64,000 bases of DNA from Bilabrum cf. latius (GCA_965178125.1 OZ237742.1:372001-436000), one strand, 5' to 3'. Positions 1 through 63,988 are shown, counted from the stretch's first letter. Notes: generated from the sequence alone by a model not told the origin. Numbers and translations: made by a program.

Positions 1-1213
1 CGCACGTGAAGTAGTCTCCCGCGTCAATAGACAGCGGGCTAAGGTTCGACTCGGATGGGTCCGCAGGCATCGCGTAGTCAATTTCTGCTGCCATACTTGC
101 ATCGGGGGCGGGGTTCAGGTCACCGCGGCCAAGCTGGCCCTTGGAGTTGTCCGTGCCAAAGCACTTGGAGCCGCCGCCGGACGACAGCACGCATGTGTGC
201 GCTAGTCCCGATGTCACACGCAGTGCATCCGCGCCGTGGATGCACGACCTTGTGTGTGAGCGCTTTCCAGCCTCGCTGCTACTGCTGCCTGGCAGTGCGA
301 GCGGCACGGATTCTACCACTGTCCAATTCTGCTTCGGATCGGATGGCTAGAAATTCCTAAGAGTCGCAACTCTTACATGAAAGTGAAGCAAGGGTGGAAT
401 CTACCCATTATCAGCAACAATGTCATTACTACCCACGACCGGGTTGGCACTAGCCGCAGCATGCAGCAGGCTTGACGGAATTGCCACTTCCTGCGCCTGG
501 TTTGGCTGCGATTCGACGAGCATGGCCCTGCCGCATTCTGGGGCTGCATTCCAGCCAAAGTGCACCGATCTAGCAATCGACGAGCTATTTGTAGTACGGG
601 TTGAGTTGGACTACTGTTCACCCGGCGAATTCGAAACCAGAGCCCAGCTTCGCACTGTCGGGCGTGACAGAAAGTTGGCTGAGCTGCACTATGAGAAACA
701 TGATTGCGTACCTGTTTGCACCTAAACGAGAAGCACAGCCCCCCACAACTACTGCAGGAGATTCCTATGACAATCGACCGCCGAGCAGCGACCGCTCGCA
801 TCGTGGAGTTCGCCACCAGCCGTTTGGGTGGCATTGAGCTGCAGAGCCCCGCTTCGGCCAGGACCGCCAACTGATACGCCAATCCATATTTCACTGCATT
901 GATGCGGCAACTTTGCCGCTCTGCTGTGTGATTCGTTGGCAGCATATACATGGGGCACACGGTGGTTCTCGTTTTGATCGAATCGCTGCTACGAATTGCT
1001 CTGCCAACGGACCCGAATCTCGTCGAACCAAGGGATGGCCGAGGCATTGAGTTGACTGAAATCTTTGCATTCAGATATTGTTCCCGGCTCCGCCCGTGAA
1101 CACCACGGCAAGTCCCCGAGAGGCCCAGTAGCGCACTACGCGTAGTTTGCCAATACACCTAGAGCAACCACTACGAGGGCTATGTTTGGGCGCCTCGGTG
1201 TGATCAAACTCAT
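1..1213 (-). CDS. Secreted/surface RCC1-like (beta-propeller) repeat protein, 5' part; runs off the window's left edge
   Basis: ATG at 1213. Signal-peptide-like MSLITPRRPNIALVVVALGVLANYA. Frame open to base 1 except 8 TAGs (1136, 989, 749, 722, 689, 611, 401, 347). RCC1-type motifs VTSGLAHTCVLSSGGGSKCFGTDNSKGQLGRG and SIDAGDYFTC. Confidence 0.75.
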
Positions 1214-1685
1214 TGCCACCAAAACGTTCGGGACTCAGCTTCGAACAATGGGAGCATCTATCCAGCACTACCGCAGGGTGGCGTAGAAAGATGTAGATAC
1301 GCCGTGGCACCATGCGTGTGCGCGGCTGCCGGAACATGGTCGAACATGGTCGCAAGCAAGGGCTGACACAGACCAGCATTCAACAAGCACGGCAGCGGAT
1401 TTCGCCTCTTCAAACTGTCAAACGCACAGCTGCACTTTACAAACCAAATCGGCGAGCCACGGGAGATTCTTCATCCGCCGGCCGGTGGCAAGAGCCGGTT
1501 GGCACGTCCATGATCCGCTCTCAACCAATACCTCCTGCAACCCTCCGATGGTCTTAGCATAGAATTTTGTATATACTACACCAAGTCAGCCATATTCCGA
1601 GGCATGAGAGGCAAGAAAATCCACAAATCATCACACTACCGGCACCTAGCTTCGACTCACATCCATTCCGTGGCACAGCCTTAAG

Positions 1686-4464
1686 ATGGCAACTGCTGCT
1701 AGCATGGCTTTACGGAGCGTTTCAAGATCAGTGCTATGCACTAGGCTGTTCAGGGCTCTATCGGCAACGTCAGCACTGGGAGTCCCCGAAACTGGGCGGT
1801 GGCGTCGCATGCAGCAGAGCCACGGCGTTCGACTGGCGTCAACTTTTGTTTCCTAGCACTACGAACTTCCTAATAGGGCGGTTCAGTCATACCTCGACGC
1901 CGCTGGCCTGTCGTTCCGGATTAGTGGCAAGCACGCTGTCGTTCGCGAGTGCCCATTGTGTGGGAAGCCATCCAAAGGCCGAGCAGATAACATGTACAAG
2001 CTGTACGTTTCAACAGACACTGGAGTATTTTTTTGCCACCGATGTGGGTCGAAGGGGTCGTGGTTTGATTTCAAGAGAAGGCTAGGAGGGCGCTCGAAAG
2101 ACAGCAGCAATCCAGACAGTAAGCAACAACAATCTCTTGCACCATTCGGCGTGGCTGGTGCGGCGTGGCAAGGCGCAGCGTAGTTGCAGCCACACAGAGA
2201 CGGCAATTCGGCTTCCAAGTCTGTCGACTCGTCCTCCCCTATCTTGGACCTGTCCGACGTGATTGCCTCTCAAGAACAACTCGCTGCCAGCCTGGACGTT
2301 ACAGCGGCTCCTGGCGACGACAGCAAAGTCGGACGATTCGCGCGCGTTAGCACCTGGCTAACAACTCAACGAGGTATCTCTCCCGCCATCCTCCAGGCGT
2401 ACTGCGTCGGCGGCGCCGAATGGGGGAGCGGCAGAGCATCTGCTCAGCCCAAGGCGAGCACGTCCGACGGCGGGCGCAGGGAGCAGTTCGCGGTCTTTCC
2501 GCTGCTCTCTCGCGCAGATCAAGTGGAAAGTGCCCGCAAGCTGGCGGGAGACGCGGAAGGTGCGGGCTTGGGTGGCTCAAGCGCGATGTCCGAAGCCAAG
2601 CGAGGAGGTGCTCATGGTCAACAGGCCTCCTCGGCGAATGGCCTGGTGCTTCACCGGTGCAAGCTGCGCTCGGTGAGCGACAAGTCAAAGCAGATGCTGC
2701 TACCAAAGGGAGGCAGCTGGGGCCTATTCGGCCTGCACGCTGTTCCCCGAGGCGCCCGCTCCATCGTGCTGACAGAGGGGGAGCTGGACGCCATGTCCGT
2801 CATGTAGGCCACGGGCGTGCCAGCCGTCTCGCTTCCCAACGGGTGCAGATCCCTGCCACTGGAAATCATGCCCTTGCTGGAGCCCTTTGAGACCATATTC
2901 CTGTGGCTGGACGACGACCAGAGCGGGATAGAGGGGGCTGCCAAGATGGCGGGCAAGCTGGGCAGGGGCCGCTGCAGGATCGTGCGGACGGCAGACGGGC
3001 TCGTCCGCGATGGCGGCAGCGCAGGGACGTCCGCGCAGGCGGAGCCCGCACGACCCAAAGACGCCAACGACGCCCTTCGTCTACCCCCTGGGGCGTACAG
3101 CTTCACGCAGGCCCTGCAGCGATCGGAGCCTATGCCTCACAAGGAGATCCTCCGGTTCTCTGACCTGCGTCACGCCATCCAGCACGAGCTCCGGAACCCA
3201 GACCTCGTGTCGGGCACCCCATGGCGGGTGCTGCCAGGCCTGCAGAAGCTCTTGAAGGGTCACAGGAGCGGGGAGCTGACCGTGCTGACCGGCCCCACAG
3301 GCGCTGGCAAGACGACCTTGCTCTCCTAGCTGTCCCTCGATCTAGCGGCGCAAGGGGTGCCCACCCTGTGGGGCTCCTTCGAGGTCAAGAACGCGCGCCT
3401 TGCCAAGAAGATGCTGCAGCAGTACATGGGAGCCGCAGTGGTGGACACGGCCAACCCTCAGGCCCTGGATGCAGCCGCCGATGCCTTCGAGCAGCTGCCC
3501 CTGTACTTCTTGCGCTTCTTTGGTGGCAGTCCAGTGGAGGACGTGCTGGACGCGATGGACTACGCGGTGTACGCGCACGATGTCAGCCACATCGTGCTGG
3601 ACAACCTGCAGTTCATGATGGCGGGCGCCTCGGGGGGCGTGTCGGCTGGCAAGCGGGGCCGCGGGGGAGCGGGAAGGGGAGGCGGGGGCGGGGGCGCGTT
3701 CGAGCGCTTCGAGGCGCAGGAGGCGGCGCTGGACCACTTCCGGCGGTTTGCCTCTCAGCGAGACGTCCACGTCACACTCGTCATCCATCCCAGGAAGGAA
3801 CCCGAGGACGCCCCGCTGACCCTTTCTTCCGTGTTCGGGACTGCAAAGGCCACCCAGGAGGCGGACAACGTGCTCATCCTGCAGAGGGCAGGGGACAAGA
3901 AGCGACTGGACGTCCGTAAGAACAGGCACGACGGCTCCCTCGGTGGGGTCGACCTGTCCTTCGACGCCGGCACGCAGATGATGGTGGAGCCGGGGAGCAG
4001 CGAGTCGGCCTTGCCCATCGCGATGATGGGGGAGGCCGGGGCCGGGGAGGGGGCGGGAACACCAGGCAGGGCGCGCGGGGGCGGGGCAGGGGGGCCCTTC
4101 GCGCGGGCGGGAGCTCTTGATTTCCTGCACGCCGGGGGGGCCCCTCCCGCCGCCTTGGATGCGGTGGAGGAGCCCGATGGGCTCGAAGGAGAAGGAGGGG
4201 GCGCTGCAGCCCTCTCGGTCGGCGTGGGGGCGGCTGTGCGTGAGACAGAGGACACGGACCTGCTGCGGTCTCTCGGGTTGGGCGGTGGGGCCGTCGTCCC
4301 CTCTCCGGCTGGGGTTCATGGGGCTGGTGGTGACCTTAATGCAGAGAACGGAAACGGGAAGGGGCCAAATACAATCGTATCGGGTTCAACATCAACAACA
4401 CCAGACCAACGACGAGGTCCAGATGCAGGCCGCGTACATGCCACGCCGCACCGGTCTGTGAATC

Positions 4465-4502
<38 letters not shown>

Positions 4503-4907
4503 TCCAGCTCAGGAAGGGTGGGCCACACTCCCGTGGTGTCTGCGGCGGGCTGGGCAACACACGCAGCCATGGGCCACGCGGGGTCATCCTTCTCGGGGGC
4601 CCCTGGACCTCCAGCCGAGGACGTGCCGGAAGTGGACGCCTCTGATGACCATGCCGCCGCAGCAGCTGCTGCCCTGTCAGAGGGCGACTCGCACGGGCTC
4701 GACCAGGACCACGATGGCACGTCAGTGAGAGGAGCGCTCGATGCAGAGCAAGCGGCGGCAGCGGACGCCGGGATCGCCATGGCGCTGGGCAGCATGCCTG
4801 CAGCGAATGCCCACTCGACTGATGAAGCAACCGCCGGCAGCCCACCAGCCGGGGAGGGTGTCCCAAAGCCGAGCAGCTGGCCGGAGGAGGACATCCTGCT
4901 GGGCTGA
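1686..4907 (+). CDS. TWNK: Twinkle mitochondrial primase-helicase (T7 gp4-like), ~1073 aa
   Basis: Basic/Ser-rich presequence, Zn finger CPLC...CHRC, TOPRIM (TEGELDAMS, WLDDD), KDAND, Walker A GPTGAGKTT, WGSFE, LDNLQFM, VIHPRKE, KATQEADN, KNRHDG. One frame with 4 TAGs (1854, 2181, 2805, 3327); ends TGA. Confidence 0.95.
4465..4512 (+). repeat. (AGC)n microsatellite encoding poly-Ser in the Twinkle C-terminal tail
   Basis: Direct run of agc triplets in frame. Confidence 0.85.
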
Positions 4908-5121: not shown

Positions 5122-5412
5122 TCATTCTCTTCCTCCTTCATCGGGGCGGGGGTGGTCCAGCTACAGAGCTGCTGCCTTGGCTTCTTCCTTTCGCATAATC
5201 GCGTAGAATTCAGTCGGATGCAGCGCGGCCAATGCCTCAAGTGCCTCAACCGCCAGCTGTGCATCCTGTTCGCTGCTAATGTGGCTCCCTACTTTGAACT
5301 CAGCCGCTGCTGCCTTGAAGGCCGTCCTGACATTGTTCTCCATGGTGCCACGGACGGCAGTCGAAGGGAATTGTCTCACAGCTCGCATAGCCCGGCGATA
5401 CAGCCTGCGCAT
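5122..5412 (-). CDS. LYR-motif (Complex1_LYR family) small mitochondrial protein, ~96 aa
   Basis: MRRLYRRAMRAVRQFP...NVRTAFK fits the LYR...F pattern. TAG at 5161 read through to TGA at 5122. In-frame TAA just upstream of the ATG. Confidence 0.7.
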
Positions 5413-5969
5413 CGCACCTTAGTACTGCAAGTAGAGGTAGAGATGAAGAGGGGCATCGTTGCGAGTGGTTTGATTGGCAGCTTATCGTGCTAGCTGGTTG
5501 TACCTGCCGCTCGCCTGGGCGTCAGAGTATTTAGAGATGATTGATCTCATTCTGGCTAGGCCAGTCAGAAATAGGCTCGTCTATCATCTTAATTATCTTC
5601 ATTCGCGTGGCTATACTAGTGCTCAGGTCTCAAACTTATCGGCACCGAGCCCGAAGGCTCTTTTGCTCTTAGGCTCGTTTTTTTCATCATCGCACCGCAT
5701 TAATCACAAGCAAAACCTAAATTGAAGCAATATGCCTACTGTCTCACTCATGGGATGGTGCAGAACATTAATATCAGTACATTCAAATGCAGACCTACGT
5801 CCACCTAGAGGCAGTATATGGCTGCGCTGCCTGCTGTGGTGCTGCGGTGAGGCATCTGCAACTGTTCCGATCGGAGCAGAACGAGTTGCGACCAGCTGCA
5901 CGGCGTGCTGGCAAGGACGCCGCGATCATCTGAATCCAGTCGATATGAGCGCATATTGTCGCTGTTGAG

Positions 5970-13193: not shown

Positions 13194-13353
13194 CTTCACC
13201 TCTTAAAGACTTAAAATGTGTCTCAATCCAAAACAAAGCAATGGAATCCTCTACAATCACAAATTTAAGATGCAAATCTCTACATGCATGGCTACGAAGT
13301 GCACACAGAATTAACCAAAGCCCCAGCCACCGCCTTGCTGACCGGTCCTCTTC

Positions 13354-15110
13354 TCACGAGGCGACTGCCCTCGCCTCCACCTGCAGCCAGTCGAAGTCCC
13401 AAGTGTTCGGCATTCCCTCGTGAGGGATACCCGCATACTCGGGCAGGAAAGAAAAGGGCTTCTGCACCTGGTGCGTCGGCCCCGAGATGGCTCTGACTGG
13501 CAAGGTGGGATCGTCCAGCATGCCCGCCCTGTCGATGAGCTTCGCGTCGATGCCTCCAAATGCGTAGGGATGTCCAGTAATGTTGCCCGGGAGGTCGCAC
13601 CGCGCAGAGATGGCGTTGCAGGGCTTGTCGAGCGCGAGGGGGTCCGTGGTGTAGTTGTTCTGGTTCATGACCCGGCTGGCAGACAGCAGGTCAGAGATGC
13701 CTCTCTGGTCCCTGCCAAACATGCGGGCCCGCACGTCGGTAGTGTAGTTGAAGCCCGTGTTGTTGTAGCCAGAGTAATTGAAGATTTCCGGGAATTTCGG
13801 GATGTTAATGCTGTACAAGTAGGTGGTTGCCCTGAGGTCGGCCGTCGCATCCCTTGCGACGACCAAGCCAGGCATCTGCTCGAGCATCCAGGCGGTGCCG
13901 TCAGGCAGCTCCGCCGATGGTGACCCGGCACTCGCTGACCTTGGTAGTTGCTTGTAGTCCGTGACGATCCATTGGTTGTTGTGCGTGCCCGAGTTGTGCT
14001 TGGAGAAGAGGTCCGTCCACTGCTGGCTGCTGCTGCTGGCCCTGTTTGCGACCTGCACCCTGGCCCAGCACGGCACGCTGGCGGGTGTCAGTTTCTGGTA
14101 CGTGTCCTTGTTGAACACGGTCAATGATGTCTCGATCACGGTGAGGCCGGATCCCACTGCATAGAAATCGTCCTTGGAGTGTAGGTCGGCCGGCCTCGAG
14201 CTGAAGGAGACCCTGGAGCCAGGGTACTGCGCTGTTCCCTGGACCTGCTTCCCCCCGCTGAAATCGTACGTCTTGTATACTCGGAGCATGAACTGGTAGT
14301 CGTTGAAGGTGGTGTGGCCAGTGACGATGTCTCGCGCGGCGGGCACGTGCTTGACCAGGCCGCTGCAGTGCTGGCCCCGGTGAGCGAAAGCTCCGCTGCG
14401 GCTAGACTCCCACTCCGCCGTCTGATCGGATGGATACGCTCGTAAAAGGTCCTCTAGGTCACCAGCGTTGCTCAGCTGGTAGAACTCGTCCCAGCGCAGC
14501 TACTCATTTTCAGCGGCGGCTTGCTAGTAGCCGAGATACATGCCCTGCAACTGTGCCAAACTGACGTTCACATTCTGCCAATACGCATCACTAGGGTTCT
14601 CTTCGACCTGCGGCATGGAATAAAGCCTTTGTCAACCTGGAATCAGTACGCAGTCTATCGGTCTACCAGTTGTTCAAGACGCGTGAGCTCGACCGTGGGC
14701 ATGCGTCGTTGGGGTCGATGGCTCACCTGTCGTAACATCCAGCCCCACTGGTCCCGGACGAAATCAAGAGCTTTCGGAGGGGGCAGCGTTGAATTCTTGT
14801 AGAATGTCGCAGCAAAGTTCTTGAATGCCGCAAAGATGTGCGTCTGCGTTAGGATGCCCTCAGCAAAGCCCATCCCGAACGCAGCATCGCTAAGCAGCGC
14901 AGTCCCTTTGGCATCCCCGTGGAAGAATGTCCAACCAGTCGTTTCCAGGGAATCTGTAAAGTTGGCGCATGCTACGGCGGCTTCGTTTTTGCAACCATCA
15001 ACCAGGCTCCACCCGGGCGCACCTCCGGTTCTCTGGACCGACACCACTTTAGATACCGATGCAAATGCAGCACTTAACGAACATATAGTCACCACCAAGG
15101 CGACCCGCAT
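13354..15110 (-). CDS. Phospholipase B-like (PLBD/Ntn-hydrolase) lysosomal protein; exons 15110-14727 and 14607-13354
   Basis: Signal peptide MRVALVVTICSLSAAFA, LETTGW, GFAEGILT, nucleophile HCSGLVK, GHTTF, SKDDFY, NSGTHNNQW, AISARCDL, GGIDAK. Intron 14608-14726 (GTGAGC...CGCAG). TAGs at 14524 and 14500; ends TGA. Confidence 0.92.
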
Positions 15111-15234: not shown

Positions 15235-17634
15235 ATGAGCTCACAACAAGCACACCAACAGTACCAAGCAGGCCTATTCCAGATGTCATCGAAAGAGGAC
15301 ATCAAGAAGATCATCAAGAGCTTAGCACGGCAGGGGAACTTTGATGAGATCGAGTCTCGATTCGGCGCGACAAAGAGAGCAAAGGCGATGGCATGGGCAG
15401 CCAAGAAGGATTCTGCCTAGAAATCCAAGAGAACTGCAGCAGCAGCAGCAGATGCAACGCCAGAAAAGAAGGATTCATCTTCTTCCAGCTCTAGTGCGCA
15501 AGCTGGATCAAGCTCATCTGCGGCTTCGACGTACGAGGGAGGGGCAGCTGCAGGCAAGCCGAGCATGAAAGCAGTTGCTCGCAAGCTGAAATTCGATGCT
15601 GAGGAGTCGCCTGGGAAGACAGCACCCTCTGAAAACTCAAAATCATCCAAACCATAGATGAAGATCGCAAGGAAGCTTAAGAAGAGCAAGCACAAGGTCC
15701 CCAAGAGCGGCAGGAAGCGTCCCCTCAGCGCGTACATGCTGTTCACTCAAGCTGTCAGAGGCCGGGTGAAGAGCGAACACCCAGAGGCCAGCATCACTGA
15801 CCTTGCAAAGCTGATGGGAGAAGAATGGAGATCAATGGGAGAGGCAGACAAGGCTGGTTACCAGAGCAAAGCCAAGGAGCTCAAGGACGCGTACGACGCA
15901 GCAGTCGCGGCTGATGCTGGGCCTGGAGCCTCTTCAGCGCTCGCAGGCAAGCGGAAGAGAGAAAACGAGAAGGGAGTGTCATCAACTAAGAAGAGGAAGA
16001 AGGTTTCGGTGGCATCAGAGAGCGCAGCGAGCGTGGAGCTGGTGAAGGTGCATCCCAACGGGCTCCGCGAGATGTCGGACGGCCGGATTCTCGACGACGA
16101 AGGTGAGCTCCACTTCGCGAGCGAAGTTGACGCCAAGCCCCGGATCGAGACTACTCCAGACTTGACAAAGTTTGACATGGAGGCGGGAGTGAAAGCGGTG
16201 CTTGTGCTTCCTGCCGTGGAGGAGTTCCTGGAGGCTGCCAAGGTCGTGGCCAAGGAGGACACGCTAGCCTGCGTGTCTGCTGCAGAGGTGGAGAGCTTCC
16301 CCTCCCTGGCGTCCAACGGAATGTTGGATGCAACTTGCACCGCTATCAAGGACTGCGACGATGGTAGCTGGAAGCAGGCAACCTTTGAGTTCGCCTCGAG
16401 CGGCGCAGAGGCCGAGGCGAGCGCGGGCCAAGCAGCCTCCGGAGCCGGGAGCCACACCACCAAGACCATCACGCTGCCGTGGCTGAGCGCATAGGACGAC
16501 TCCATGAGCTTTGTTCCCTACGTCCTAACACAGGCAGCCTTCGAGGACTCTGTGAAGGAGGACGTGCGCCCGGGCAGCCAGATCTCGGCCGACTTCATCG
16601 AGGCAAGCAGCGGTAGTGAAGAGAAGTGGGTCATGTACGAGGGACGAGTGTACCACGTGGGCAGCTGCTCTGACGGAGTCTGCAAAAAGTACAAGAACTG
16701 CCCCTACAAGTCCCTGTCGGTCGTGTGGTACTACCAGAGCATCTCGAAGGACAGCTGGGTGCTGGACGAGCAGCAGCTCGACAACCTCATGTCCCCCTGG
16801 GACGTTCGGCTGTCGAGCGAATTCGTCCGCAGGCCCAACGTGCACGCCTACGCGGACGTACCCATTCCCACTTTGGGTGCTGCTGACCAAGTCATCGCCT
16901 ACATGCGGCGGTGCGAGTTCGGGCAGTACTTCTGGGACGACCCAACGAAGGACGACGACGACTACGCGGCGAGGATCAAGCACCCCATGTGCCTTCGCAC
17001 GATGATCCGGAAGCACAGGAAGGGCGAGTACGACGGATCCAAGATCTCCAAGCTGTGGGAGGACCTGCTGCTGGTAGTGAAGAACACGAGGAAGTACTAT
17101 GACGGCAACCGGGTCGAGTACCGCATGGCGGACATGCTGTATCGTGAGGTACGGAGCATCAAGAAGGCCTTCAAGCCGGGGTAGGGCTCCATCAAGGCAG
17201 CCAAGGCTGCTGTGCCCAGAGTGAACCCGTGGGTCAAGGTGGGGTCGGAAGGCGGCAAGCCGCGGCGCAGGGCGGCCAGCGGCTACGGCAGCGACGAGGA
17301 CGCGCCGCGCCGCCGCAGGTCCAAGAAAATCAAGGAGGCGGCGGAAGCGCCTCCCACCGTCCTGAGGAGCAAGCGCGGCTCAGCCGCACAAGCAGCCCTG
17401 CGAATGCGGGCCAAGGCGCTGCAGGACCAGGGCCTGACCGAGGAAGAGGCATCGGCATCGACCAGCCTGAAGGCTGCCGAGGAAGTCGAGCCAGCGCCGA
17501 GCCAGGCCGCAGCTGCCTCATCCTCATCGTCCTCCGCAGCGGCTGCGAGCTCACAGCCTGATGGCTCGGTAGCAATGGACGACGGTGACTCTGAGGCAGG
17601 CAGCCTCTCATCCTCTGCTCCGATGGAGGACTGA
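15235..17634 (+). CDS. Chromatin protein with an HMG box, a PHIP/BRWD-like ancillary region and a bromodomain, ~799 aa
   Basis: HMG box KRPLSAYMLF...LAKLMGEEWRSM...KAGY; PYKSLSVVWY...MSPWDV; bromodomain DYAARIKHPMCLRTM...LWEDLLLVVKNTRKYY. Joined across 4 TAGs (15418, 15655, 16492, 17182); ends TGA. Start could be 15283. Confidence 0.85.
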
Positions 17635-50406: not shown

Positions 50407-53400
50407 ATGAAAGCGTTGTCTGCGATTTGTCTACTCGCTCACGCGACTTACGCTCTGAGCGCCGTCGATGAGAGCAATGAGGATGTTCTGCTGCTTGCGA
50501 GCGGTGCACGAGGCTTTCGAAGACTTGAGTGAGAATTCGGTCTCCCTGGATCGATTTTCTTGGATTCCCTGGGGCATACTCCTATGCATCTAATTTCTTT
50601 AGCCATTGCAGGCATACAATGACGACTGTGAACGCGCTCGGCTCTGTATCCACCACGAGCGTGAGAGCTTAGCTATCGAGCCGCGTTGTTCACCTCGAAA
50701 TCGAGCCATCCGTCGTCGGTGTGGTGTGCAGCGCGGGTAATTTGGGCTCAATCGGCCTAACTATCAACTCAACTAGCCCCATGCACGGTCTGGGCCAAGC
50801 TGGTGGCGCCGGTGGCGACGCCTCCTTCCTGGTGGGTGGAAATTCCCTGGGGTGTAACATGCACTTGGCGCAGGACGGCTACGACTTCGAGAGACATTTT
50901 CCCGACCAAGCCACGGGTCTTGGGCACCATGAAGAGGTGCGGGCTGTTCGGGCCGAGCCAACACGTGGATTCACGCTGGAGGCTGGCGAGGTGCAACGAG
51001 TGTGCTCGGCTTGGATTCCAGAGGCCGCCGGCTCGGGGCATGGCAGCCAAGGCAACCCGCAACCTGATTACGACCCCACGCTGCTGCTCAATGAAGCTAA
51101 GACAGCAGGGCCGTCTGATCCATCGAGTCACGGATCTCGTCTTCTCCGCAGCAGCGCGAACTCCGCTGCCGGCTGCGTATCAACCCCCGAGGGATCCACG
51201 GTCGGCCAGGCCATTGCGCATGCTGTCAGCCGGTGGAAGTCTGAAGGGCTGTATCCTGCGAAGTGCATGCCAACTATGCGCCCTGATGGCAGCGAAGCGG
51301 GCGCAAAGCGCGCATGTCCCCTGTTCGTCGTCATGGATGTCTCGCCTGTCCCGTTCTACCACCTCTTCGACGACCTGTCCTTCAGGTACTCCCGAACGGC
51401 TTCAACGGCAGAAAAGCTGTACCATGCGCATGCCACGCAGCACGCCGAGCACGTCCGAGCACTCCGTCAGGATCCGGCGACGAGCGCAGAGCAGCTGGAA
51501 GAGGTGCGTACGCTAAGGCAATTCCTTCGCCACCGCCTCCACCGCGTAGCTGACGACCATGGGAACGCAAACGGCACGTCTTCCAAGATTACCGACATGC
51601 AGGAGCTCCTTCGACTCATCGACGAGCACAACTTGCTTGGCGATTCGGGAAGCCAAGCAACGGCTCGAACGAGCGGTAGGCGGCAGCTGTGGTGGGGTGA
51701 TGACGGCGGTGACGACAACATCTTCTCGAGTGTGGTTTCCACCGTCTCGAGCGCCGCGAGTTCGGTTTATTCGGCTGCCAGTAGCGCTGTGAGCAGCGCA
51801 GTCTCAGCTGTCAGCTAGATCTTGAGCGTCGACTTCGAAGAGAGCCGGAGGCTGATGATCTCGAGCTGGAACTACGAAGACGGAGAAGTGGGCTCGAAAT
51901 CCATCTACCTTGACAGCTATAAGCTGACGTACTGGTGAGACCCCGGTTAGAGAGGCCAAGTCCTACTACTGCTCTTGATCTGCTCGTACAGATGTCATCG
52001 ACACCGCTCAATCCGCCACTGCATTTCCCTCTTGCTTCCCCTTGGTACTCGCAGCAAGGACTGCTACTATGCCATGTACGCCGACGTAGAGGTGGCCCTG
52101 GATGCCAGCGTCAGCGGAGTAAGGTATGCCAAGGTGGAGCTGTCCGGTACGGCGGCCTTCAACTTTGACGTGCGTGTTACTCCGACGAGCGGGACACGGT
52201 CGTTCCCAGAGAGGCGCTACCCCTTCTACCCCTACTCTTCCGATTCCAACTCCAAAAGGCACGCGCACATGACGTCGTTCCGGTTTGTAGTGCTTGGAGT
52301 CCCGATTTCTGTCGATTTTGGGTTGCAGCTGAGCGCGGGCATCTCGGGCAGCGTGTCTGGCACTGTCAAGGGCAACGGACCTGCCGTCAGCGCGTATCGT
52401 ACCATCACGATGGGCGCCGAATACAGGAGCGGAAGCTGGCGCACGCTCCAAGGCGGCTCAATGAGCCTTAGCACGCGAGCTCCAGCGCTGGATCTGTCAG
52501 GTCGGGCCACTGTGATCGCCAACGTGCAGCTGTCCATGCAGGCCAACATGTACGGCGTTTGGCCCCTCAGAGCCATCGTCATCCCAACGGCGGAGGCATA
52601 TCTAGGCGTCGGGTTCAGCACCGGTAGCCAGCAGTGCAGTAGCTTCTAGGCAGCTATTGCCATCTACTTGAAGTGTATGTACCGCATCGAGGTGGACAAG
52701 CTGGGCGTCACCGTTGCGGGCGTGTTCCTGGGTCTTCCGGCGCGGTATTTCTCTGGCACGCTGAGAGCCGAGTACAAGCTCACAGGATCCGGACTGTCTG
52801 GTTGCGTGTCACTGTCCGATTTGGGACGCGGTGTGAGCCGCAGAAGGCTGCTGCCGGCCCCCGGCGATCTCGACAACCCATACATTGCCACTGAGGACCA
52901 GGAGCTGCTCACCGACCCCGGTGAAGGGAGGCGTCTGGCTCTCTCCGATGGGGCAGAGGAACAGCTTTTCTGGCTGGCTACTAGACTAGCCGCGGCATCT
53001 GACCATTCGGGTCTTGACAGCAGCACGTTTGAGTCTATTGCAATAGACCGCGGCCTTCTTACAGCCAATTCCCCTGCTCTCTCAACCATGGGTGCCTACG
53101 ATGGCGCTGGGCGGCAATTGAGCTCTGGGACATGCAACTTCATCGGCTCGCCTTCTGTAGATGGGCTTCGTGCCGAATCAGAGGGTGTCAACATCACGTT
53201 TGCAGTTGTCACGAATGGGACCGGCTGCGGACAAGTGTCTCAAGTCTTGGTGTCGGCATGGCGAGACGATGGCATCATCATCGACACGCAGATTCTGTCT
53301 GACAATGGGTCCTTTGCGTTCACTCAGACTACGGTCTTGGTTCCCAAGAGCGCCTTAGACTTTGCAGGGTCTGATGTGTACTTCGCTGTATCGGTCAGCG

Positions 53401-56400
53401 TAGCCGGTGCAGCCAGCACATCGAGCTCCTCCGCTTACTCGAACACGATTTCGGAGCCTCAGGCCTGGATCGACGGCAGTGGGCAGAATGGAACGTCCGG
53501 CTCGCCGTCTGACGATGACAATTCCGGCTACGGCGGAGTCGGGGGTGGCGACGATGATACCTTTCTGGGCGGTCTGTTCGACGACGACGATGCAGATGAT
53601 GGCGTCGGTTTCAGCATCGGCTCTGGGCTAAGCTACAGGTTTGAAATCGTGGGCCGGAGCAGCTGCTCCAGCACGTGTGGGCAAGGAGTTACATTGCAAG
53701 AGATCGCGTGTGTCGGTGAAAATGCCACCACCGGCCAGACGATGCAGCTGCCGCTTGACAACTGTGAACAAGAGCTTGGGGCATCTGCGCGCCCGCAAGA
53801 TACTCTTCCCTGCAATATTCCATGCAAGGGGCTCTCTGTCGATGGACACTTCGACCGTATTCTTCGCTTGCCGCCGTTTGCCGCCACAGTGTCGGGGTAT
53901 GCAGACATCTGGCTTACATCAGGTACGCGCAACCGCTTCTTCATTCACACCAAGCTGGATAGCCAGGACGACGGGCTCTACATCATGAGCAAACCCACCG
54001 ACGACGTCTCCCTGGCGAGCGTGGAGTCGATGGCAGTAGCTCCAAGAGAGGAATCCTGCCCCAGTCGAATCTTCGGCAGCAAGCAGCAGCCGCGACTCCC
54101 GCACGTGGCTGGATACCTTGCAGCAGACAAGATCTCGTCGAACGTGCTAGCCGGCACTCACGTGATATCAGAAGTCCGAATCTCCAACTAGCGATGCAGC
54201 CCCGACCCCAGTGCGTGGGACGATGGGATTCCTTCCGATGATTCCGGGGCATCCACTGATGACAACTACGGCGATGATGATGCCCCAGAGCCGTGCACTG
54301 CTAGTGTGGACGTGACGCAGGTCCCATACCTGGCTGCAGCATTCGGCACCTTGCGCTGGCTGCGGTTCCCTGTTGGGACGTCGTTCAATGAGAGTGCAGG
54401 CCATGAATGGATCCGCACCGTAGGCTCGAACTTCAACGGGAATGTACCACCGAACAGCAGTCTCCCTACTCCAGAGTGTCCGGACCTGCACTTCAATGAT
54501 GAACGGCAAGACCGCGAGAATTGTATCAAGAATGGAGGCACTGCGTTTGACAAGCCCATGGGTCTCCCGACTTTTGCCCTCTGCCGTGGTGCCAGCCCAG
54601 GCTCTGACAAGTGGTTCGTCGCGATCGAAGGGCTGAGCCCGGACTCACCCAACGCCTCGTATAGCGGTGACTAGTCTACTCCGTGGCCGGGTCACGCCTG
54701 GGAGGACGAGTACGTGACAGGACAGAGCCTCGAGTCGTCTGCGCTGCGCCACATGCTTGTGAGACCGACGACTGGTGCCATTGGCTTTGCAATAGAAGTT
54801 ACTACATCCCAGGTGTCGACCGGCCGGGACGCCGGCGAGGTGGTCCCCGTCGTTCGGGCCAACACGCTCAACTCCAGCGCGGACCATCATGGGTGGATCA
54901 TGCGGCCAGAGGAGTCATCGAAGTGGACGTCTGCCCCCGCGGTACAGCTAAGATCTGGCCAGCACACGACAAGCCTGATCGTGTCTGGGGAGGACTTTGA
55001 CGACCGCGAGAACTACGCGGTGGCACTCGTTGGCACCAACTCTAGAGCCAACGACTCCTCTGTTCTGGAGGTGCACGTTGCCCCCATCATCGACTTGCAC
55101 ATGGGTGAGCGTCAGACGCACTCGCTCCCAACTGAGGGGACCACCTACTTCCGCGTCCGCCTGCCAGGGCCAACTGCAACAGCGCACATCGTGCTCGAGT
55201 CCCTTGTCGGAGATGCAGATATCTTCATCAAGCCCGGGAGCATGTTTGGCAAGCGGATGAGCTGGTCTACCCTGCCTCAATTTCCATCGAATGATGCCGA
55301 TCGCCCCACGTGGTCGTCATACGAGTACTACTCGGTGGAGGAGGTGACAGTATCGCATCTGCACCCTCGCTTCGATCAGACGATATATCTCGCGGTGACT
55401 TCGTGGGAATTGCCCGCGGAATTCCGCATCTCTGTGACACCTACTACGCCAATGGATCCTGGAGTAGTGTACACGGATGCGCTCGAGCCGACTGAGACTG
55501 CCTATTTCGTTGGCTCGGACAGCATCGGAGAGCTCGTTGACGTGGACGCGCAGGACATGTCATTCGATGCCAGGGTGCTGGTTGACAGGGAGCAGCCCGC
55601 GGGGGTGTCCTTGTTCGCTGGTTCAATCGACAGCTACTTTCCCATCGTGCGCAAGGATTACGCCGCGGTCACGGCCAGGGATGTCAGGCCAGGGACGTCG
55701 GCAGAGGTGATTGCCGACTACTCCCCCTCTGGTGCCGTCTCTCGTCAGATGCTCATCGGTGTGCAGGCATCCTACCACGACAGAACGGAAGTTCCAAAGC
55801 CCCTTCCCTTCGACCCCGTGAGCTCATCAGATTTCATTGCCACCCGACGGCGTCTCGAGGAGTCGCCACGCCGTGCTAGCGAAGAGCTGGACGCAATCGT
55901 GGACAGAGCTTTGGCTCGGAAGAGCACAGAGGAGCTGTCAAGCCTGTGCAACGCCAAGGCTTCAGCCACAATTCGCCGCAATGGAGCGTTGGGGCTGTCT
56001 GACAATCGCATCGCAATGTGCGATGAGTTTGCAAGGAGCGCAAGCCAGCATGATCCAGTTGAAAACAGATTCAGTGCCGAGCGCCAGGCTATCCTTGCGG
56101 CGATCGCCCCGGAGTCCGCAAGGGTCCCGCAAACCTCAACTTCATCAGGCGAGGGTGAGCAGGCCCGTCGCAACATGGATGCAACGCGGAAGGAGGCGCC
56201 CGAATCTGACCTTGATACCGGTATGGGCGATGAAACTGTCCGGTTGGCGCTCGCAGCCGCGGAGTCTGGCCTGGTGCCCGAAGAGTACCCCTGGACAGGC
56301 ACTGCAGGAGAGCTTGCGTCCAGCTCGTCGAACCCGATGCCCGTGTACTCGTTGGTGGGTGCAGATGGGTTGCACACCGCATGGTCCAACGAGACGTGCG

Positions 56401-59400
56401 CCGAGTACGGCTCAATTGAGGCCACGCGGGAGTGCGCGCAGCAGCTGGTGAACGGTATTGATGATGGCAAGCAGTCTCCCAGAAGCAACAGGTACTTATC
56501 GGATGGCGGTTCTACGCACTAGATCAGTCTGCAACAGTTTGATCAAGGCACGCAAGAGTGGAGGATGCTGTCTCAGTGCGAGGCTACCCCGGGTATTACC
56601 GTTGCATCGGCCTGCGCCACGGCTGAGGGCAGCTCTGGCAACTCCCTCGAATTCCTTCGCGTGCAAGTTCCTGCGAACACGCTACTATACTTCAGCGTTG
56701 TTGCGAAAGAATCAACGGAGCGGAGCGTGGACGCTGCGTACACGATGAGGTCCAGAACCAGCTCGCTGCCAGGTCCAGGTGCAGGCGAGTTCGAGGACAG
56801 CGCCGTGTCAGCGGGCCGCACCTTCGAGATGGTCAACTGCAGGTACAACGGCGAGGTGGGCTACGTGAGCGTGTAGGGCAACAACGATGCGAGCTCCCCT
56901 ACAATGTTCGAATTGACCGTTGCCGCTGAGGATGCAACTAGGCTCGGTCTGTGCCCAAAGATGGAGTGGCGTGCAGGGCCATGGGGCGACTGGTCACACG
57001 TCTGCAACTCGGCAACTCGCGTTCGTGATGCGCAGTGCGTTCGCTCAGACACCGGATAGCAAGTGGACTCGAGCTTCTGCTAGAGCTCCCTGCTCCCAGA
57101 CCTCGAAGAAACGCGAGACTTTGGCAAGTGCGTGTGGACAGCCTATCCGTGGTCCCAGTGCTCCAAACGATGTGAAGGGGGCACCCAATGGCGCATCGTG
57201 GACTGCCGCAACAGGGATGGGAAAGGCGAAAAGGTTCTCGACCGCGAGTGCACTGACATGCCCGCAACTCAGCGGCCTTGCAACACCGAGTCGTGCCCAG
57301 ACCTTGCATGGATCACCGACGAGTGGTCTCCTTGCTCACGAGAGTGTGGCGGTGGTATCCGAAGGAGGGACGTGTACTGCTATGACTATCGCACCGAGGA
57401 GCCGTACACTACCGCAAGGGGCAGGGTGGCCTGTGAACAGAAGCTCGGACTACCGCCATCCGTCGAGGAGGCATGCAACATGGAAGTGTGCAGCCAGACG
57501 CAGTTCAGTCTCGTGCAGATGGACGTGAGGCAGCTGCAGAATGGTATCCCTAGGACAGAGCCACTCGTGCCCGCAGAGAGTGTGAGCTACTACATGTGGG
57601 AGAGAACTGCTCAGGCCAAGGGAGTGTGCGTGCAGGTGAGGCAGCAGGACGTGGTCACAACCACGAGCGTGTGTTCCGTGCGTGAGCAGCAGGATGCTGC
57701 TGCATGCGTGCGGCAGTTCCAGTCTTGCCAAGAGGACTTCACTGGATCAACTGACGACATGATTGTTAACAACGCAAGTCACTACTCTGATTGTGCCCAG
57801 GTGGCAGCCGAGTGCGTCGCGTCGATCGGATGCGGGCTCCGGGATCCCTTGATGGAGAGCGTCCTGTACCGCATGGACTCGGTTCTCAGTAAAGACACTG
57901 GCTCTGGCTTTCAGGTTGCTCTCGAGGCTGGGTCGATGGCTCCGAACGAGCCTGGTTAGGTTGAGCTCTTCATGAGCCCAGTGTCAGACTCCATGGCAGA
58001 CGGCATCCGAGAGGGCGCTGGCACGCTTGGCGATGCCATCGTGCAGCCCGCTGCTTCCAAGGGCTCGCTCGCGTACAAGCTGCAGCAGGAGATCGGCACC
58101 GGGTTCCAGCCGCCGACCAGTTTGGCCAGCGCCCGCTGGTACTTCCAGCCGGCCTTCCGCACTGGCACCCAGACGCTGTGGGCTTGGGACGACATTGACC
58201 CGATGTCCAAGGCCACGGAGCGGTTCTTGATCGGTGTCAAGGCTAAAGACAAGGCGCGTGCTGCCCACGTGACCGCGACCGGCCTGCAGGCTTTCCCTGT
58301 GGCACTCAGTGGCAGCCTCGCCGAGGGTCCTGTCACAGTGCAGCAGATCCGGACTGGCGGCCTCAAGCTGGTGATCACACTGTCGTGCGACCTCTTCCTC
58401 ACGCCTCAGGAGCTACTGAACCAGGTGCGGCTAACCAACCCCAACGCGACCATTGCAGACATCCTGTCAGCGGGTGACGCGAAAGCAGCCGGCGTCGATG
58501 AATCGAGCGCGGTGGCGCCGAGCCCCAACCTCATCCTGGTGGGCATGACCTCGCTGCAGAGCTCGGCCAAGGGCTGGAACAGAGCTGCCAAACTGCCGCT
58601 GCTTCGCAACCAAGATGGTGAAATGGCCCGAATCTCGATGGGTGGACAAGCCCTCGAGCTCACGCTACCAGCCGTGGAAGGGTATGACCCTGCAGGAGAC
58701 GAAACGATCCAGGTGTCGATCCCCGCCGCCATGCTAAGGAGTGGGAGGGCCACCACCGTGCCTGTGAGCGAGGGTGCCATCCAGGTGCTTGCGGACAGGG
58801 CTGACTGCATCGTGAGCGAGTGGGGTCCCTGGTCTGAGTGCGACAAGATCTGCAGGCCTGGCAGGCAGTTCCGGCAGCGCAGCGTGTCGAGTCTGCCGAG
58901 AGGAGACGGATCCACCTGTCCTGCAACGCTGGAGGAGCGAGACTGCAACACGTGCGATCCCTGTTCCGGCGTTGAGTGTCAGAACGGCGGGTTCTGTGTG
59001 TTTGGCCAGTGCATGTGCCCACCTGGCTACAGTGGCACCGACTGCAGTGCCCCGCCGCCGTTCTTGTAGGCGTTCTGGAGAGCTGGAGATTGGGGCAAGT
59101 GCAGCACGGCATGCGGGGGTGGTCTGCAGCCGCGCACTGTGCAGTGCGTGTACCCTGACATGGGCAATGGCGGTCAGCTCGAAGTGGCCCCCTCTGACGA
59201 CGTGCAGGGTGCCGTGAACCAGTACCAGCGGTGGGTAGATGACGGCAGCCGGGGCGACCGTCCGGAGTATGACCCCACGACCATGTGCGATGCCGCCGTG
59301 ATGCCGATTGTCGAGCGCGAATGCAACGTGCAGGCCTGCTCGGAAGCTGTCGTTGACTTCAGCATCGAGATGGATCCGCCGGGTGCCACTGCATCGGGAC

Positions 59401-60749
59401 CAGACAGTGCCGCGAGGCGGCTCTTTTTCTGGGATGATGACGACGACAGCGACGATTTCCTGTCTTCTGCTGTGTCGCAGGTCTCGTCCGAGATGGTGGA
59501 CTCTGTTCTGGCTGGCGTGCACTCGGAGGTGGTCAGTGCTCTGGGACTAGACCCGCTGCAGGTCATTCCAGAGAGCGTGCAGGACTGGTTCATGGACGAG
59601 ATCGGTCTCGGCGGGCGGCGGGTGCTCCGTCGGAACCGCGCCACGTTCAACGCGAGGGTGCAGTCGCGGCAGGCTGCCTCTGTCATCAAGGGCAAAGATG
59701 GATCTGCTGCCGAGAAACTGGGGCTCTCCGGCAAGGTGGGTGGCATGGTGAACTCGCGTTTCAGCCGGCGCGTGCTCTAGCAGTCAAGTGGTAGTGAGGG
59801 GGACGCTGTCAATGCCATTGATGAGTTTGTCCGACAAGCGGGCGACCCGGAGTCCACTCTCCGAACGCGCGGCACGTTCCTTCCTGGCATGAGCGGGAAC
59901 ATTTCGTTCGCGATCAGATCGGGCGTATCGGGCGAGGTGGAACGCGTGGTTGTGGTGCCAGTGCAGCCTGCAGTCCAGCGGCTAGATGATGCTGGCAGCG
60001 ATGGCGGGTCGACTGACGGAGGATCCACTGACGGAGGATCCACTGACGGAGGATCCACTGACGGAGGATCCACTGACGGAGGATCCACTGACGGCGGGTC
60101 GATTGACGGCGGGTCGACTGACGGAGGATACACTGACGGAGGATCCACTGACGGAGGATCCACTGACGGAGGATCCACTGACGGCGGGTCGATTGACGGC
60201 GGGTCGACTGACGGAGGATCCACCAATGACACCATTGGTGACAGCAATAGCGGCAGCCTGGATCAAGACAGCCCAGGCGACAACAACGAGTCCGGAGACC
60301 CTGGCACTGGGCTTACCATCGCAGTCGGCGCGGCCGTGGTGTGCGGTGTGGCCGCACTGGCCCTGGGTGCCCTCTTCTTCATGCAGAGCCGGCAGATGGG
60401 ACCCTTTGCACCGCGCCGAGCGGTGCAGAACAACCCGATGGAGTTCGGGTACAGGTCCAAGGGCCACGGGCTCGGTGGCCCGCAGGTCGGTGCAGGGGGC
60501 ATGCCGACCGCACCCAACTTGAAGGGCCTGTCGCACGGGCCTGGCGCATCCACGGCTCCGTCCATCGCGGCCCCTGACGGTCGTATGCAGCAGATTCGAG
60601 ACGCTAATCAGAGGGGCATCCAGCCCGCCCTCCGTGACGATGGGCACGCGTCTGTGAACCCGCTGGCGATGGCTCACTCGCCTGCTCTCGCTCGCCAAGC
60701 GGCCAGCGATGAGTCGGAACACTCTGGCTCGAATGCAAGCGCCGTCTGA
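50407..60749 (+). CDS. Giant type I membrane adhesin-like protein (~3379 aa) with thrombospondin type-1 repeats, EGF, (DGGST)n and TM; exons 50407-50528, 50612-51934, 52055-60749
   Basis: Signal MKALSAICLLAHATYALS. Introns 50529-50611 and 51935-52054 (GTGAGA...GCAG). TSP1 motifs WSQCSKRCEGG, WSPCSRECGGG, WGPWSECDKIC, WGKCSTACGGG; EGF CQNGGFCVFGQCMCPPGYSGTDC; TM IAVGAAVVCGVAALALGALFFM. 12 TAGs (50670, 51816, 52647, 54189, 54672, 56520, 56874, 57057, 57081, 57957, 59067, 59778); ends TGA. Confidence 0.88.
60000..60224 (+). repeat. 15-bp coding repeat, (DGGST)15 juxtamembrane spacer
   Basis: GACGGAGGATCCACT-type units. The DGGSI variant recurs after 6 units (90 bp). Confidence 0.92.
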
Positions 60750-60958: not shown

Positions 60959-63900
60959 ATGCCTGGAAAATCAGGAGGTTATGGAGCAGTTGGTGATCCT
61001 CGATTATAGTATAGAGTGAAAGAATAGCTTGATATTTTCCAGAAGGCAAAAGGTCCGTTCCTTCCTTCTCCAGATACAATGATTGATATGCTGCGGCAGG
61101 AGTACCCGGACTACAAGAACAGAAAAATCCCTCGCAAGGTCGTTGATAAAGCACTTGGGCATGCATCTAGATAGGTATCCGGAGAGCCTTCAAGGAAGCT
61201 ACCTGCTCAGCCAAGACGCGTCAAAGCCTCCAACTTTGATAGAGATGCAACTGCTGGTATGCAGGAGCCAGAGGATATTGCAAACCCACCTGACAAGCCG
61301 AATGGGGGGAAAGCCAAGCCATACAACCCCATGCCCGGTGCACCACGACCGAAAGCCGCTGACGACGCAGGACAGGCCGGAAACAGGGCACTTGCCGATG
61401 GTACCTCTCGCCGCAAGCGTAAGGCAAGTCAGTTGCTGCGAAAGGGGGGTAAGCGACGACGAAAATCGGGCCAGAATAGTAAGGGTGGCGCAGAGTACTC
61501 GTCATCTAGCTCTAGTGACGATGATAGCGATGCAGAAGGGGGAAATCAAGGTGACAGCGGAACGTCCAGCTTCAAGGAGGTTTTGGGGGCCTCGGAGCGG
61601 CCAGCAACGCGGTACTCTGACCTTGGCGGCATCGAAGGCGTGCTGTATGCAGTCCGAGAATTGATTGAGTATCCCTTGACTCACCCCGAGGTGTACGCTC
61701 ACATCGGGGTCGATCCCCCGAGGGGCGTGCTGCTCCACGGACCGCCCGGATGTGGCAAGACCTTGCTGGCGCACGCAATCGCGGGTGAGCTGGGCGTGTC
61801 GTTCTTCCGCGTGTCGGCTCCTGAGATCACCTCCGGTGTGGTGGGGGCAGCTGAGAAGAAGATTCGGTCCATATTCGAGTCGGCGAGGCAGGCCGCCCCC
61901 TCGCTCGTGTTCATTGACGAGATCGATGCGATCGCGCCCAAGCTGGAGGCAGGCTCCAGGGGCATGGAGCGAAGGGTCGTGGCCCAGCTGCTCACTGCCA
62001 TTGATAGGCTGGGAGATCCTGAGCCGGACGCAGGCGAGGTCGGAGGAGTCCAAGAGGAGAAGGGAGCGCAAGCTACTGGGAGTGTCTAGGCTGGCACACC
62101 AGCGAGCGGGGCTGGGGCCGGTGCAGCGGCAATGCAAGACGGTGACGATGCAGTAGATACCGCAACAGGTATAGAACCCAGTACGGCAGACGCGCCTAGA
62201 CTCAGACCGGCCGTGGTGGTACTGGGAGCCACATCCAAGCCGGAGAACATCGACCCGGGTCTCAGGCGATCGGGCAGATTCGACAGAGAGGTTGGGCTGG
62301 GCATTCCAGACGAGAAGGCGCGGGCGCACATCCTGCGGCGACTCACGCGAGGGATGAAGCTATCTGAAGAAATCAATGTTGAAGACATTGCTAGGCGGTC
62401 GCCTGGATACGTTGGAGCTGACCTCGCTGCGCTGACCAAGGAGGCCGCAGTGTGCGCGGTGCACCGCGTGTTCGGAAAGGTAGTGGCGGGATCTGGACTG
62501 GGCTCGGCGGCTGCGATCAAGCCTCCAGTGGCTAGCAGTTTGCCAGGCATCGCTGCATCTGGCATGTCTTCGGCGCTGTCCGCATCTGCTGCGGCCACAT
62601 CCTCTTCGACCTCGTCTTCCTCCTCGTCCAGCGCTGCAGCGGGCACGACTTCAAGTCAGCGCACGGAGGAGAGCTTCTCCAAGTTCGAGAGGGAGAGCAA
62701 ATACTTACGTGAGATGGGCCCGCTCGGCCATGGGCTGCTGGACGAGCTCAAGGTTACGATATCCGATTTCGAAGAGGCACTCAAGAAGGTGCAGCCGTCG
62801 GCCACACGGGAAGGCTTCGCCACGGTGCCCAAGGTGACGTGGGACGATGTTGGCGCCCTGCAGAACATCCGAGACGAGCTGCGTCTGTCGATCTTAGAGC
62901 CGATTAGGAACCCAGAGGCCTATCAGGACCTCGGCATGCTGGCATCGGCTGGCCTTCTGTTGTTTGGCCCCCCCGGGTGCGGCAAGACTCTGCTGGCCAA
63001 GGCGATCGCGAATTAGAGCGGGGCCAACTTCATTTCCGTCAAGGGCCCCGAGCTGCTTGATAAATACGTGGGAGAATCCGAGCGCGCGGTGCGGCAGGTT
63101 TTCTCCAGGGCCAACGCGTCGGCGCCATGCGTCGTTTTCTTTGACGAGATTGACGCGTTGGCGCCCCGCCGCGGTGGCTCTGGCTCCGGGAATGCCGTGA
63201 CTGATCGGGTTGTAAACTAGCTGCTCACCGAGCTGGATGGCATGGACGTACGACGAGACGTCTTCATCATCGCTGCAACCAACCGACCCGACATCATCGA
63301 CAAGGCCATGCTTCGGCCGGGGCGCCTGGACAAGTTGTTGTACGTGCCTCTGCCCACTGCCAGCGACAGGGCGGCCATCCTGGAGACTCACACCCGCAAG
63401 GTTCCGATGGGCACCGACGTGGACGTGCACAAGCTCGCTCACGATCCTCGCTGCGAAGGATTCTCAGGTGCAGACCTTGCGGGCCTGGTGCGCGAGTCGG
63501 CCATGGAATCTCTTAGAGAGCGGTTGGGTATGGAGCCGAGGGCGGTCGCAGAGAAGAGGATGGCGTCTGCTCCTCGAGGAGTTGGAACAGGTGCGATTGC
63601 AGCGCCAGCGACTGCCGTAGCTTCTACATCCTCGTCGTCTGGTGCTTCAACCGTTGATGTACCAGCCACGCCAGGGGGGACCAAAGCATCCGTCTGTGCC
63701 CGGCACTTCGACGCTGCGTTCGACAAGGTAAGGCCGTCGGTGTCTCGAGCGGACCAGCGGATGTACGAGAGGATCAGGGCCTCCGTGCACGGCCTGAGCG
63801 GGGCAAAGGGCAAGGCTGCGCGAGTGGCAGAAGCAGCCGCGGCCGTAATCAAGGCCTAGAGCAAGGCTGGTCCGGGGGACTCTGGGTCTGAGGCGAGCGC

Positions 63901-63988
63901 TGGCGCATCAGGCAGTGCAGCTGACAAGACTGGAGTCAGTGGCTCGTCCGCAGCACCAGTTGGTGCCGGGCCGATGGACGCTGACTGA
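60959..63988 (+). CDS. NVL: NVL/Rix7-type double AAA+ ATPase (60S ribosome biogenesis), ~1009 aa
   Basis: N-terminal DPRL...[13 protein letters not shown]1 [16 protein letters not shown]2 [55 protein letters not shown]. 7 TAGs (61007, 61025, 61172, 62087, 63014, 63218, 63857); TGA at 63986. Confidence 0.93.

Follow-up and report, generated by a model that had tools for sequence, protein, structure and literature searches.

Introduction

Changes of the nuclear genetic code are rare, and codes in which UAG and UAA differ in meaning are rarer still, only a handful of cases being described in the part of PMC11687900 available to us. According to the same part of that source, UAG alone has been reassigned to glutamine in the fornicate Iotanema spirale, the ciliate Protocruzia tuzeti and two lineages of phyllopharyngean ciliates, to leucine in the rhizarian exLh and one phyllopharyngean lineage, and to serine in Scotinosphaera. 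In exLh and Iotanema, UAA is the dominant stop codon (accessible sections of PMC5304391). Both UAA and UAG (UAR) encode glutamine in many ciliates, in Dasycladales/Cladophorales, Hexamita, Streblomastix and Amoeboaphelidium protococcarum (PMC11687900 and PMC5304391, accessible sections) and, as far as this material goes, such UAR-to-Gln codes arose independently in unrelated protists. Here, we describe a stretch of 64,000 nucleotides from Bilabrum cf. latius (GCA_965178125.1 OZ237742.1:372001-436000), referred to below as the window, in which TAG occurs in frame inside conserved genes on both strands. With a probability of roughly 0.87, we read it as part of the nuclear genome of a eukaryote that is rich in G+C, has introns and has reassigned UAG from stop to glutamine, with UGA (mostly) and UAA still terminating translation.

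The closest described systems are the UAG-only codes of Iotanema, Protocruzia and the phyllopharyngean ciliates which, as far as the accessible text describes them, have in common with the window UAG as glutamine, UAA and UGA as terminators and a tRNA-Gln(CUA), predicted here, that would not pair with UAA. The main terminator in the window is UGA (13 of 14 genes), in contrast to exLh and Iotanema, where the same text gives UAA as dominant. Codes of the UAR type (NCBI table 6) share UAG as glutamine, but here TAA is not a sense codon and closes one gene of the window and one gene of a related metagenome contig, L001. With the leucine codes of exLh and the phyllopharyngean lineage and the serine code of Scotinosphaera, the window shares the uncoupling of UAG from UAA and differs in the residue. 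The ambiguous codes of Condylostoma, Parduczia, the karyorelicts and Blastocrithidia (UAA), as the available excerpts present them, also place a stop codon inside coding sequences, whereas two dedicated terminators remain here, with a weak hint (P = 0.08) that UAG may have both roles.

Ideas on how reassignment comes about, be it through mutation of a tRNA anticodon, eRF1 specificity or base composition, can be put to the test with every further independent case, and it is unusual to see UAG freed in a GC-rich genome where UAA and UGA are kept. The finding matters in practice too: standard gene callers truncate proteins of this organism and its relatives (P0121 and P0374, described below), and annotation and phylogenomics need the right translation table. 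DNA and transcript data for the organism apparently exist.

Results

In-frame TAG codons in the genes of the window

The window has a G+C content of 61%. Its large genes are fragmented by the standard code, and reading through TAG yields eight frames of 831-3151 codons, on both strands, which are bounded by TGA and have no TAA inside. We built 14 conservative gene models on both strands, with a total of 16,918 codons, in which TAG was found 60 times in frame, and TAA and TGA not at all. The models end with TGA in 13 cases and with TAA in one, a CYP51-like gene. The in-frame stops to be expected were derived from the two remaining frames of this DNA, where TGA, TAG and TAA occur at 16.4, 5.0 and 2.0 per thousand codons, respectively; at these rates about 277 TGA, 84 TAG and 34 TAA would stand in frame. 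TGA and TAA are wholly excluded, whereas TAG still reaches about 70% of its background rate, the mark of a sense codon and not of decay.

Among the glutamine codons of the models, CAG was counted 555 times and CAA 126 times, and the 60 TAGs would make up about 8% of the set (60/741). TAGs lie within the Pfam-matched domains of the Twinkle-like primase-helicase, the NVL/Rix7-type ATPase, acetyl-CoA carboxylase (ACC), the phospholipase B-like protein, UNC93 and cytochrome b561. An earlier note on this DNA, which had proposed UAG as a sense codon, is borne out by these counts and by the transcript contigs described below. Its figure of about 69 TAGs in about 17,900 codons fits whole stop-to-stop frames, but the conservative models give the lower numbers above. 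The TAG coordinates that it quoted were all correct (2805, 3327, 25082-25080 on the minus strand, 33758, 63014, 63218 and 22829). It had also argued from CAG or CAA codons standing beside TAG; such neighbours were found at 7 of the 60 TAGs against 4.8 expected, which is the chance level, and this argument carries no weight. As for TAGs in both halves of NVL, those at 63014 and 63218 do lie in D2, but the supposed D1 codon at 62087 falls in an insert lacking in 120 of 120 homologues.

Three frames were kept out of the counts. Frame 2-1234 on the minus strand (8 TAGs in 411 codons) has a borderline RCC1 match only. Frames 19790-22492 on the minus strand, with 11 TAGs, and 17849-19324 on the plus strand, with 7, match no Pfam family, each lie opposite a P450 gene and were dropped as non-coding.

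TAG usage is highly uneven among the genes, ranging from 1 in the 3034 codons of ACC and none in the 224 codons of a protease exon to 7 in 1009 codons in NVL and 4 in 305 in the b561-like gene. This may reflect avoidance of TAG in highly expressed or constrained genes.

Glutamine as the probable residue encoded by UAG

The residue was assessed on alignments with 120 homologues of NVL, 150 of Twinkle, 103 of phospholipase B and 3 of UNC93. Eleven of the 15 TAGs in these four genes stand in columns with at least 50% occupancy and were scored. At NVL position 63218, in the context RVVN-X-LLTE, 118 of the 120 homologues carry glutamine and the other two threonine. Twinkle has glutamine in 124 of 150 homologues at 2805 (AMSVM-X-ATG) and in 118 of 150 at 3327, downstream of the Walker A motif, and all three UNC93 homologues have it at 25082-25080 (AYNTI-X-SL). 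The sites at 63218, 25080 and 2805, which the earlier note had picked out as fitting glutamine, thus do so. One further column, NVL 63014, is taken up in the Discussion, and the remaining six of the eleven are variable; those of phospholipase B are variable too and hold little information.

Summed over the eleven columns, the log-likelihood was +7.3 nats for glutamine, −3.8 for glutamate and −8.4 for serine, with all other residues lower. Glutamine leads glutamate by about 11 nats (9.7-12.7 under other pseudocounts and occupancy cut-offs), and leucine and serine lie 26.6 and 15.7 nats under glutamine. For calibration, the same homologues were read at the ordinary codons of the window. The mean fraction of glutamine and glutamate among homologue residues is 0.37 and 0.14 in the TAG columns, 0.27 and 0.11 in the CAG/CAA columns (n = 79), and 0.04 and 0.46 in the GAG/GAA columns (n = 102). 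The TAG columns therefore resemble the glutamine codons of the same genes and differ from their glutamate codons, which supports the glutamine reading. The outcome that the columns might show no preference, or prefer another residue, did not occur. Judged from sequence comparison, UAG behaves as a sense codon, and glutamine is clearly its best assignment.

TAG codons in spliced transcript contigs

Contigs of four sequencing runs, all dated 2025, were compared with positions 1-20000 of the window, a region with 24 TAGs; the figures that follow refer to the pieces listed in that comparison. The contigs of the DNA run X1 span the stretch without joints. Those of X5, X6 and X7, from two studies, skip four segments that begin with GT and end with AG on the gene strand, namely 14606-14724 in the phospholipase B-like gene, where the upstream exon begins at 14725, 19197-19334 and 19598-19717 in the CYP51-like gene, and 5425-5747 in the LYR-motif gene. 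The joint 14605>14725 is found in X5, X6 and X7 and is absent in X1, and the joint 5424>5748 is found in X6 and X7. In addition, the limits of these contigs track the limits of the genes and, together with the splice joints, this indicates that they derive from spliced transcripts. The introns, 119-323 nt long, and the G+C content agree with the earlier description of the DNA as nuclear, intron-bearing and not ciliate-like.

The X5 pieces cover at least 19 of the 24 TAGs with no differing letter, and four covered TAGs stand on contigs that themselves bear a splice joint. Outside the listed transcript pieces are the TAGs at 3327, 15418, 15655, 16492 and 17182. A contig taken as RNA runs over the Twinkle gene from 1676 to 2882 without differences, and transcript contigs likewise match the 2407-codon open reading frame (ORF) at 5950-6843 and 6917-13220. 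Across all runs, a single letter differs among the matches listed (C>T at 9938, X6). As TAG is kept letter for letter in spliced contigs, the covered sites cannot be explained by RNA editing, hidden introns or an assembly error. Two outcomes that would have refuted the reassignment, CAG in the mRNA or removal of TAG by splicing, did not occur: the contigs carry TAG and retain it across splicing.

All four runs show many loose ends and false joints at short CAG/GCA-rich stretches (8699-8739, 15432-15458 and others), such as a joint of 8704-8731 to 15432-15438. The stretches are coding repeats of low complexity that occur in many genes, and no rearrangement is involved.

UAA and UGA remain terminators

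If TAA were used as glutamine in the ratio of CAA to CAG, 13.6 TAAs would be expected in the 16,918 codons, and the chance of seeing none, as is the case, is about 1e-6. TAA closes one of the 14 genes (CYP51) and the UNC93 frame of L001, a small sample of TAA terminators. UGA terminates the other 13 genes and is absent in frame against 277 expected from the off-frame rate. A downstream TGA or TAA is found in every one of the 14 genes, and none needs TAG as a terminator. The lack of in-frame TAA, together with the two TAA terminators, places the code in the UAG-only class: it is of the NCBI table 15 pattern, and TAA is not a sense codon here. The UAR-to-Gln pattern of table 6 was ruled out on the same count.

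A related contig with the same trait

The metagenome contig L001 (4854 bases, 59.8% G+C) holds an UNC93 gene and the start of an ACC gene in the divergent arrangement seen in the window, and the pair is conserved, with its short first ACC exon, between window positions 23496-25700 and L001 positions 1-4854. The two ACC genes share 93.7% identity at the protein level and 80.8% at the DNA level, and UNC93 is 70% identical. L001 has three in-frame TAGs, one in UNC93 and two in the ACC frame. P0374, the closest UNC93 homologue, which derives from L001, ends where the window and two other homologues carry a conserved glutamine; with TAG left open, homology runs about 80 residues further, to a TAA. 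The TAG of the window UNC93 is CAG in L001, and the TAG of the L001 UNC93 is CAG in the window, both at conserved glutamine sites. The trait, being shared by L001, therefore belongs to a clade.

In another relative, the gene call P0121, a phospholipase B 97% identical to that of the window, begins only past the two TAGs.

Discussion

The TAG codons of the window lie in frame in real, expressed and conserved genes, at positions where homologues carry glutamine; they are retained in spliced mRNA and the trait is shared by a relative. By analogy with the way taken in other lineages (PMC5304391, in the sections available), UAG would be decoded by a tRNA-Gln(CUA), whose anticodon is one base off the usual CUG and would be unable to pair with UAA, and eRF1 would have lost or weakened its recognition of UAG and kept that of UAA and UGA.

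Several observations weigh against this reading, beginning with the scope of the codon analysis, which covers 64 kb only. The NVL column at 63014 is dominated by glutamate (E 115, Q 4, A 1; n = 120), the ACC TAG at 33758 aligns with glutamate in five of five vertebrate ACC chains among the matches listed in a structure-database search, and opposite the two TAGs in the ACC frame of L001 the window has CTG (Leu) and GAG (Glu), with no glutamine codon at either. The view of the earlier note that the conserved TAG sites mark glutamine is upheld for the columns taken together, with 63014 and the ACC site fitting less well than the others. The two glutamate-dominated columns and the L001 TAG opposite GAG would be expected if UAG encoded glutamate, or another residue, instead of glutamine, which we nevertheless consider highly improbable: glutamate is absent from all 120 homologues at NVL 63218 and from all 3 in UNC93, and is found in 9 and 19 of 150 at Twinkle 2805 and 3327, it trails glutamine over the columns under every setting tried, with the other residues further behind, and TAG is exchanged with CAG in both directions between the window and L001. 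The five ACC chains, all vertebrate, are effectively one observation, and adding that column would, by arithmetic, lower the lead of glutamine by about 2.8 nats, which does not overturn it. A further point is that the scan of the window for tRNA genes (ARAGORN, Rfam) found only a tRNA-Arg(CCG) and no CUA anticodon. One could thus imagine that no suppressor tRNA exists and that UAG is read by the near-cognate tRNA-Gln(CUG), the release factor no longer binding UAG; the minor share of TAG among the glutamine codons would also suit such decoding, for which we found nothing direct. However, a 64-kb window with one tRNA gene is uninformative on the tRNA set, and tRNA-Gln(CUA) genes are documented in other UAG-to-Gln lineages (PMC5304391, accessible text), and we regard near-cognate decoding as improbable.

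The ends of the genes offer another point of doubt. TAG falls within the last 20 codons in 3 of the 14 genes against 1.0 expected (Poisson P = 0.08), at 8 codons before the terminator in CYP51, 13 in the LYR-motif gene and 17 in UNC93, and solved CYP51 chains (PDB) finish a few residues past YKRR, near the TAG of the window. UAG might then be ambiguous, as in context-dependent codes, being glutamine within genes and still a stop near the 3' ends of some mRNAs. We hold this to be unlikely, though less so than the other alternatives, as the excess is weak, would equally be expected if old UAG terminators were simply read through to TGA or TAA, and is accompanied by such a downstream terminator in every gene; transcript ends are not visible in the contigs. 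The near-end TAGs may mark old UAG terminators that are now read through, or may hint at residual stop function and, if former UAG terminators do still act at some gene ends, the reassignment would be young or transitional. The transcript evidence has its own weak side, in that the library type of the runs is a software guess, no run is recorded as RNA and X5 was guessed to be 'probably DNA', their RNA origin being deduced from the splice joints. Nevertheless, an artefact, whether through errors of assembly or base calling, editing of UAG to CAG, TAGs in missed introns or pseudogenes, is next to negligible. No point in its support was found, the X1 DNA contigs agree in every letter with the transcript contigs of two other studies, the matches listed contain no A/G or T/C difference at any TAG site, and spliced contigs retain the TAGs; moreover, decay is ruled out because neither TGA nor TAA occurs anywhere in these frames, and L001 comes from a related organism with the same pattern.

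Lineage of the organism

The best named matches of NVL are from oomycetes, brown algae and diatoms, at about 63-73% identity in their best local alignments with the query, those of Twinkle are from Phytophthora and then Balamuthia, and phospholipase B has named matches in Pigoraptor, choanoflagellates and Symbiodinium; across the genes, the named matches point to no consistent lineage, and a protein atlas yielded no informative taxa. A tree of NVL was computed with a quick method from 34 rows, 33 of which were hand-picked among the 120 matches (named or high-scoring), plus one cluster member. In this tree, the window and six environmental or transcriptome sequences form a 7-row clade with a Shimodaira-Hasegawa-like approximate likelihood-ratio test (SH-aLRT) support of 99, apart from the clade of oomycetes and ochrophytes; the backbone is open and the branch of the window is long (1.25). 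By its visible features, i.e. 61% G+C, long ORFs, few introns and oomycete best named matches of NVL and Twinkle, the organism appears to be neither a ciliate nor a metamonad. Amoeboaphelidium, an algal parasite that reads UAG, was considered and is not supported, since it is described as UAR-to-Gln in the accessible text and the best named matches of NVL and Twinkle are not from opisthokonts.

The non-canonical nuclear code of the window is real and well supported; it belongs to a known kind, and the lineage that carries it is probably new. A stronger statement, for which we see an even chance, is that the UAG-only glutamine code arose here independently, in a case not reported before, within a GC-rich, non-ciliate protist clade of at least two members (the organism of the window and that of L001, with about 81% identity in ACC coding DNA), with UGA as main terminator, and counter to the association with AT-rich genomes that UAR reassignment usually shows. 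A full-text literature search returned no report of a UAG-only glutamine code among stramenopiles, labyrinthulomycetes or GC-rich protists, subscription journals and supplements being mostly outside its scope, and a prior report is possible.

Gene content and repeats

The 14 genes are listed in Table 1. The Pfam search returned no family for the 2407-codon ORF. The first exon of ACC lies within 25283-25681, and the single TAG of the main exon is in the carboxyltransferase region.

Table 1 Genes of the window, with supporting matches, in-frame TAG codons and gene ends.
Gene	Position	Strand	Supporting match	TAG codons	Terminator and remarks
Twinkle-like primase-helicase	1686..4904	+	Pfam Toprim_2, AAA_25, DnaB_C	1854, 2181, 2805, 3327	TGA
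LYR-motif protein, exon	5125..5418	-	Pfam Complex1_LYR	5163	intron 5425-5747
Low-complexity ORF, 2407 codons	5970..13190	+		12	TGA
Phospholipase B-like, last exon	13357..14605	-	Pfam Phospholip_B, E 3e-127	14526, 14502	
HMG-box and bromodomain protein	15235..17631	+	Pfam HMG_box, Bromodomain	4	TGA
CYP51-like sterol demethylase, last exon	17989..19196	-	Pfam p450	18015	TAA, 17989-17991
Second cytochrome P450	20105..21781	+	Pfam p450, E 5e-67	1 (20174)	TGA
Cytochrome b561-like	22323..23237	-	Pfam Cytochrom_B561, residues 73-225	4; 22829 within domain match	
UNC93/MFS transporter	23496..25184	-	Pfam UNC-93, MFS_1	25082-25080, 23546-23544	
Acetyl-CoA carboxylase, main exon	25685..34786	+	Pfam Carboxyl_trans, ACC_central, CPSase_L_D2, others	33758 only, in 3034 codons	TGA
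Papain-family protease, exon	38252..38923	+	Pfam Peptidase_C1	0	TGA
Surface-type protein, 3138 codons	39361..48774	-	EGF domain and Ser/Thr/Pro-rich stalk	11	TGA
Thrombospondin type-1 repeat protein	50529..60746	+	Pfam TSP1_ADAMTS, TSP_1	10, counted from 52071	main exon 52055-60746
NVL/Rix7-type double AAA ATPase	60959..63985	+	Pfam AAA, two matches	7; 63014 and 63218 in D2	TGA

In the thrombospondin-repeat gene, the frames 50529-51935 and 51939-60746 share one phase, with a single TGA between them that lies within a GGTGAG donor; a CAG acceptor follows 120 nt on. Positions 51935-52054 would thus form a putative 120-nt GT..AG intron holding the only in-frame TGA and similar in size to the RNA-confirmed introns. 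The gene then probably starts about 1.4 kb further upstream, with the upstream exon ending at 51934. The same protein has a GGSTD repeat, encoded by 14 copies of a 15-bp unit at 60012-60223.

Between ACC and the protease gene, a tandem array at 35173-37679 repeats a 146-bp unit about 17 times, the copies being 97% alike, shows higher-order periodicity at 294 and 440 bp and overlaps the tRNA-Arg(CCG) gene (37652-37722) by 28 bp. ARAGORN also proposed an 88-nt tRNA-Gly(ACC) at 29733-29820, within the ACC coding frame and without Rfam support, which is probably a false positive. Two shorter arrays were observed, a 26-bp unit repeated 8 times at 38970-39178, downstream of the protease gene, and the heptamer GGTGGCA repeated 19 times at 49466-49597.

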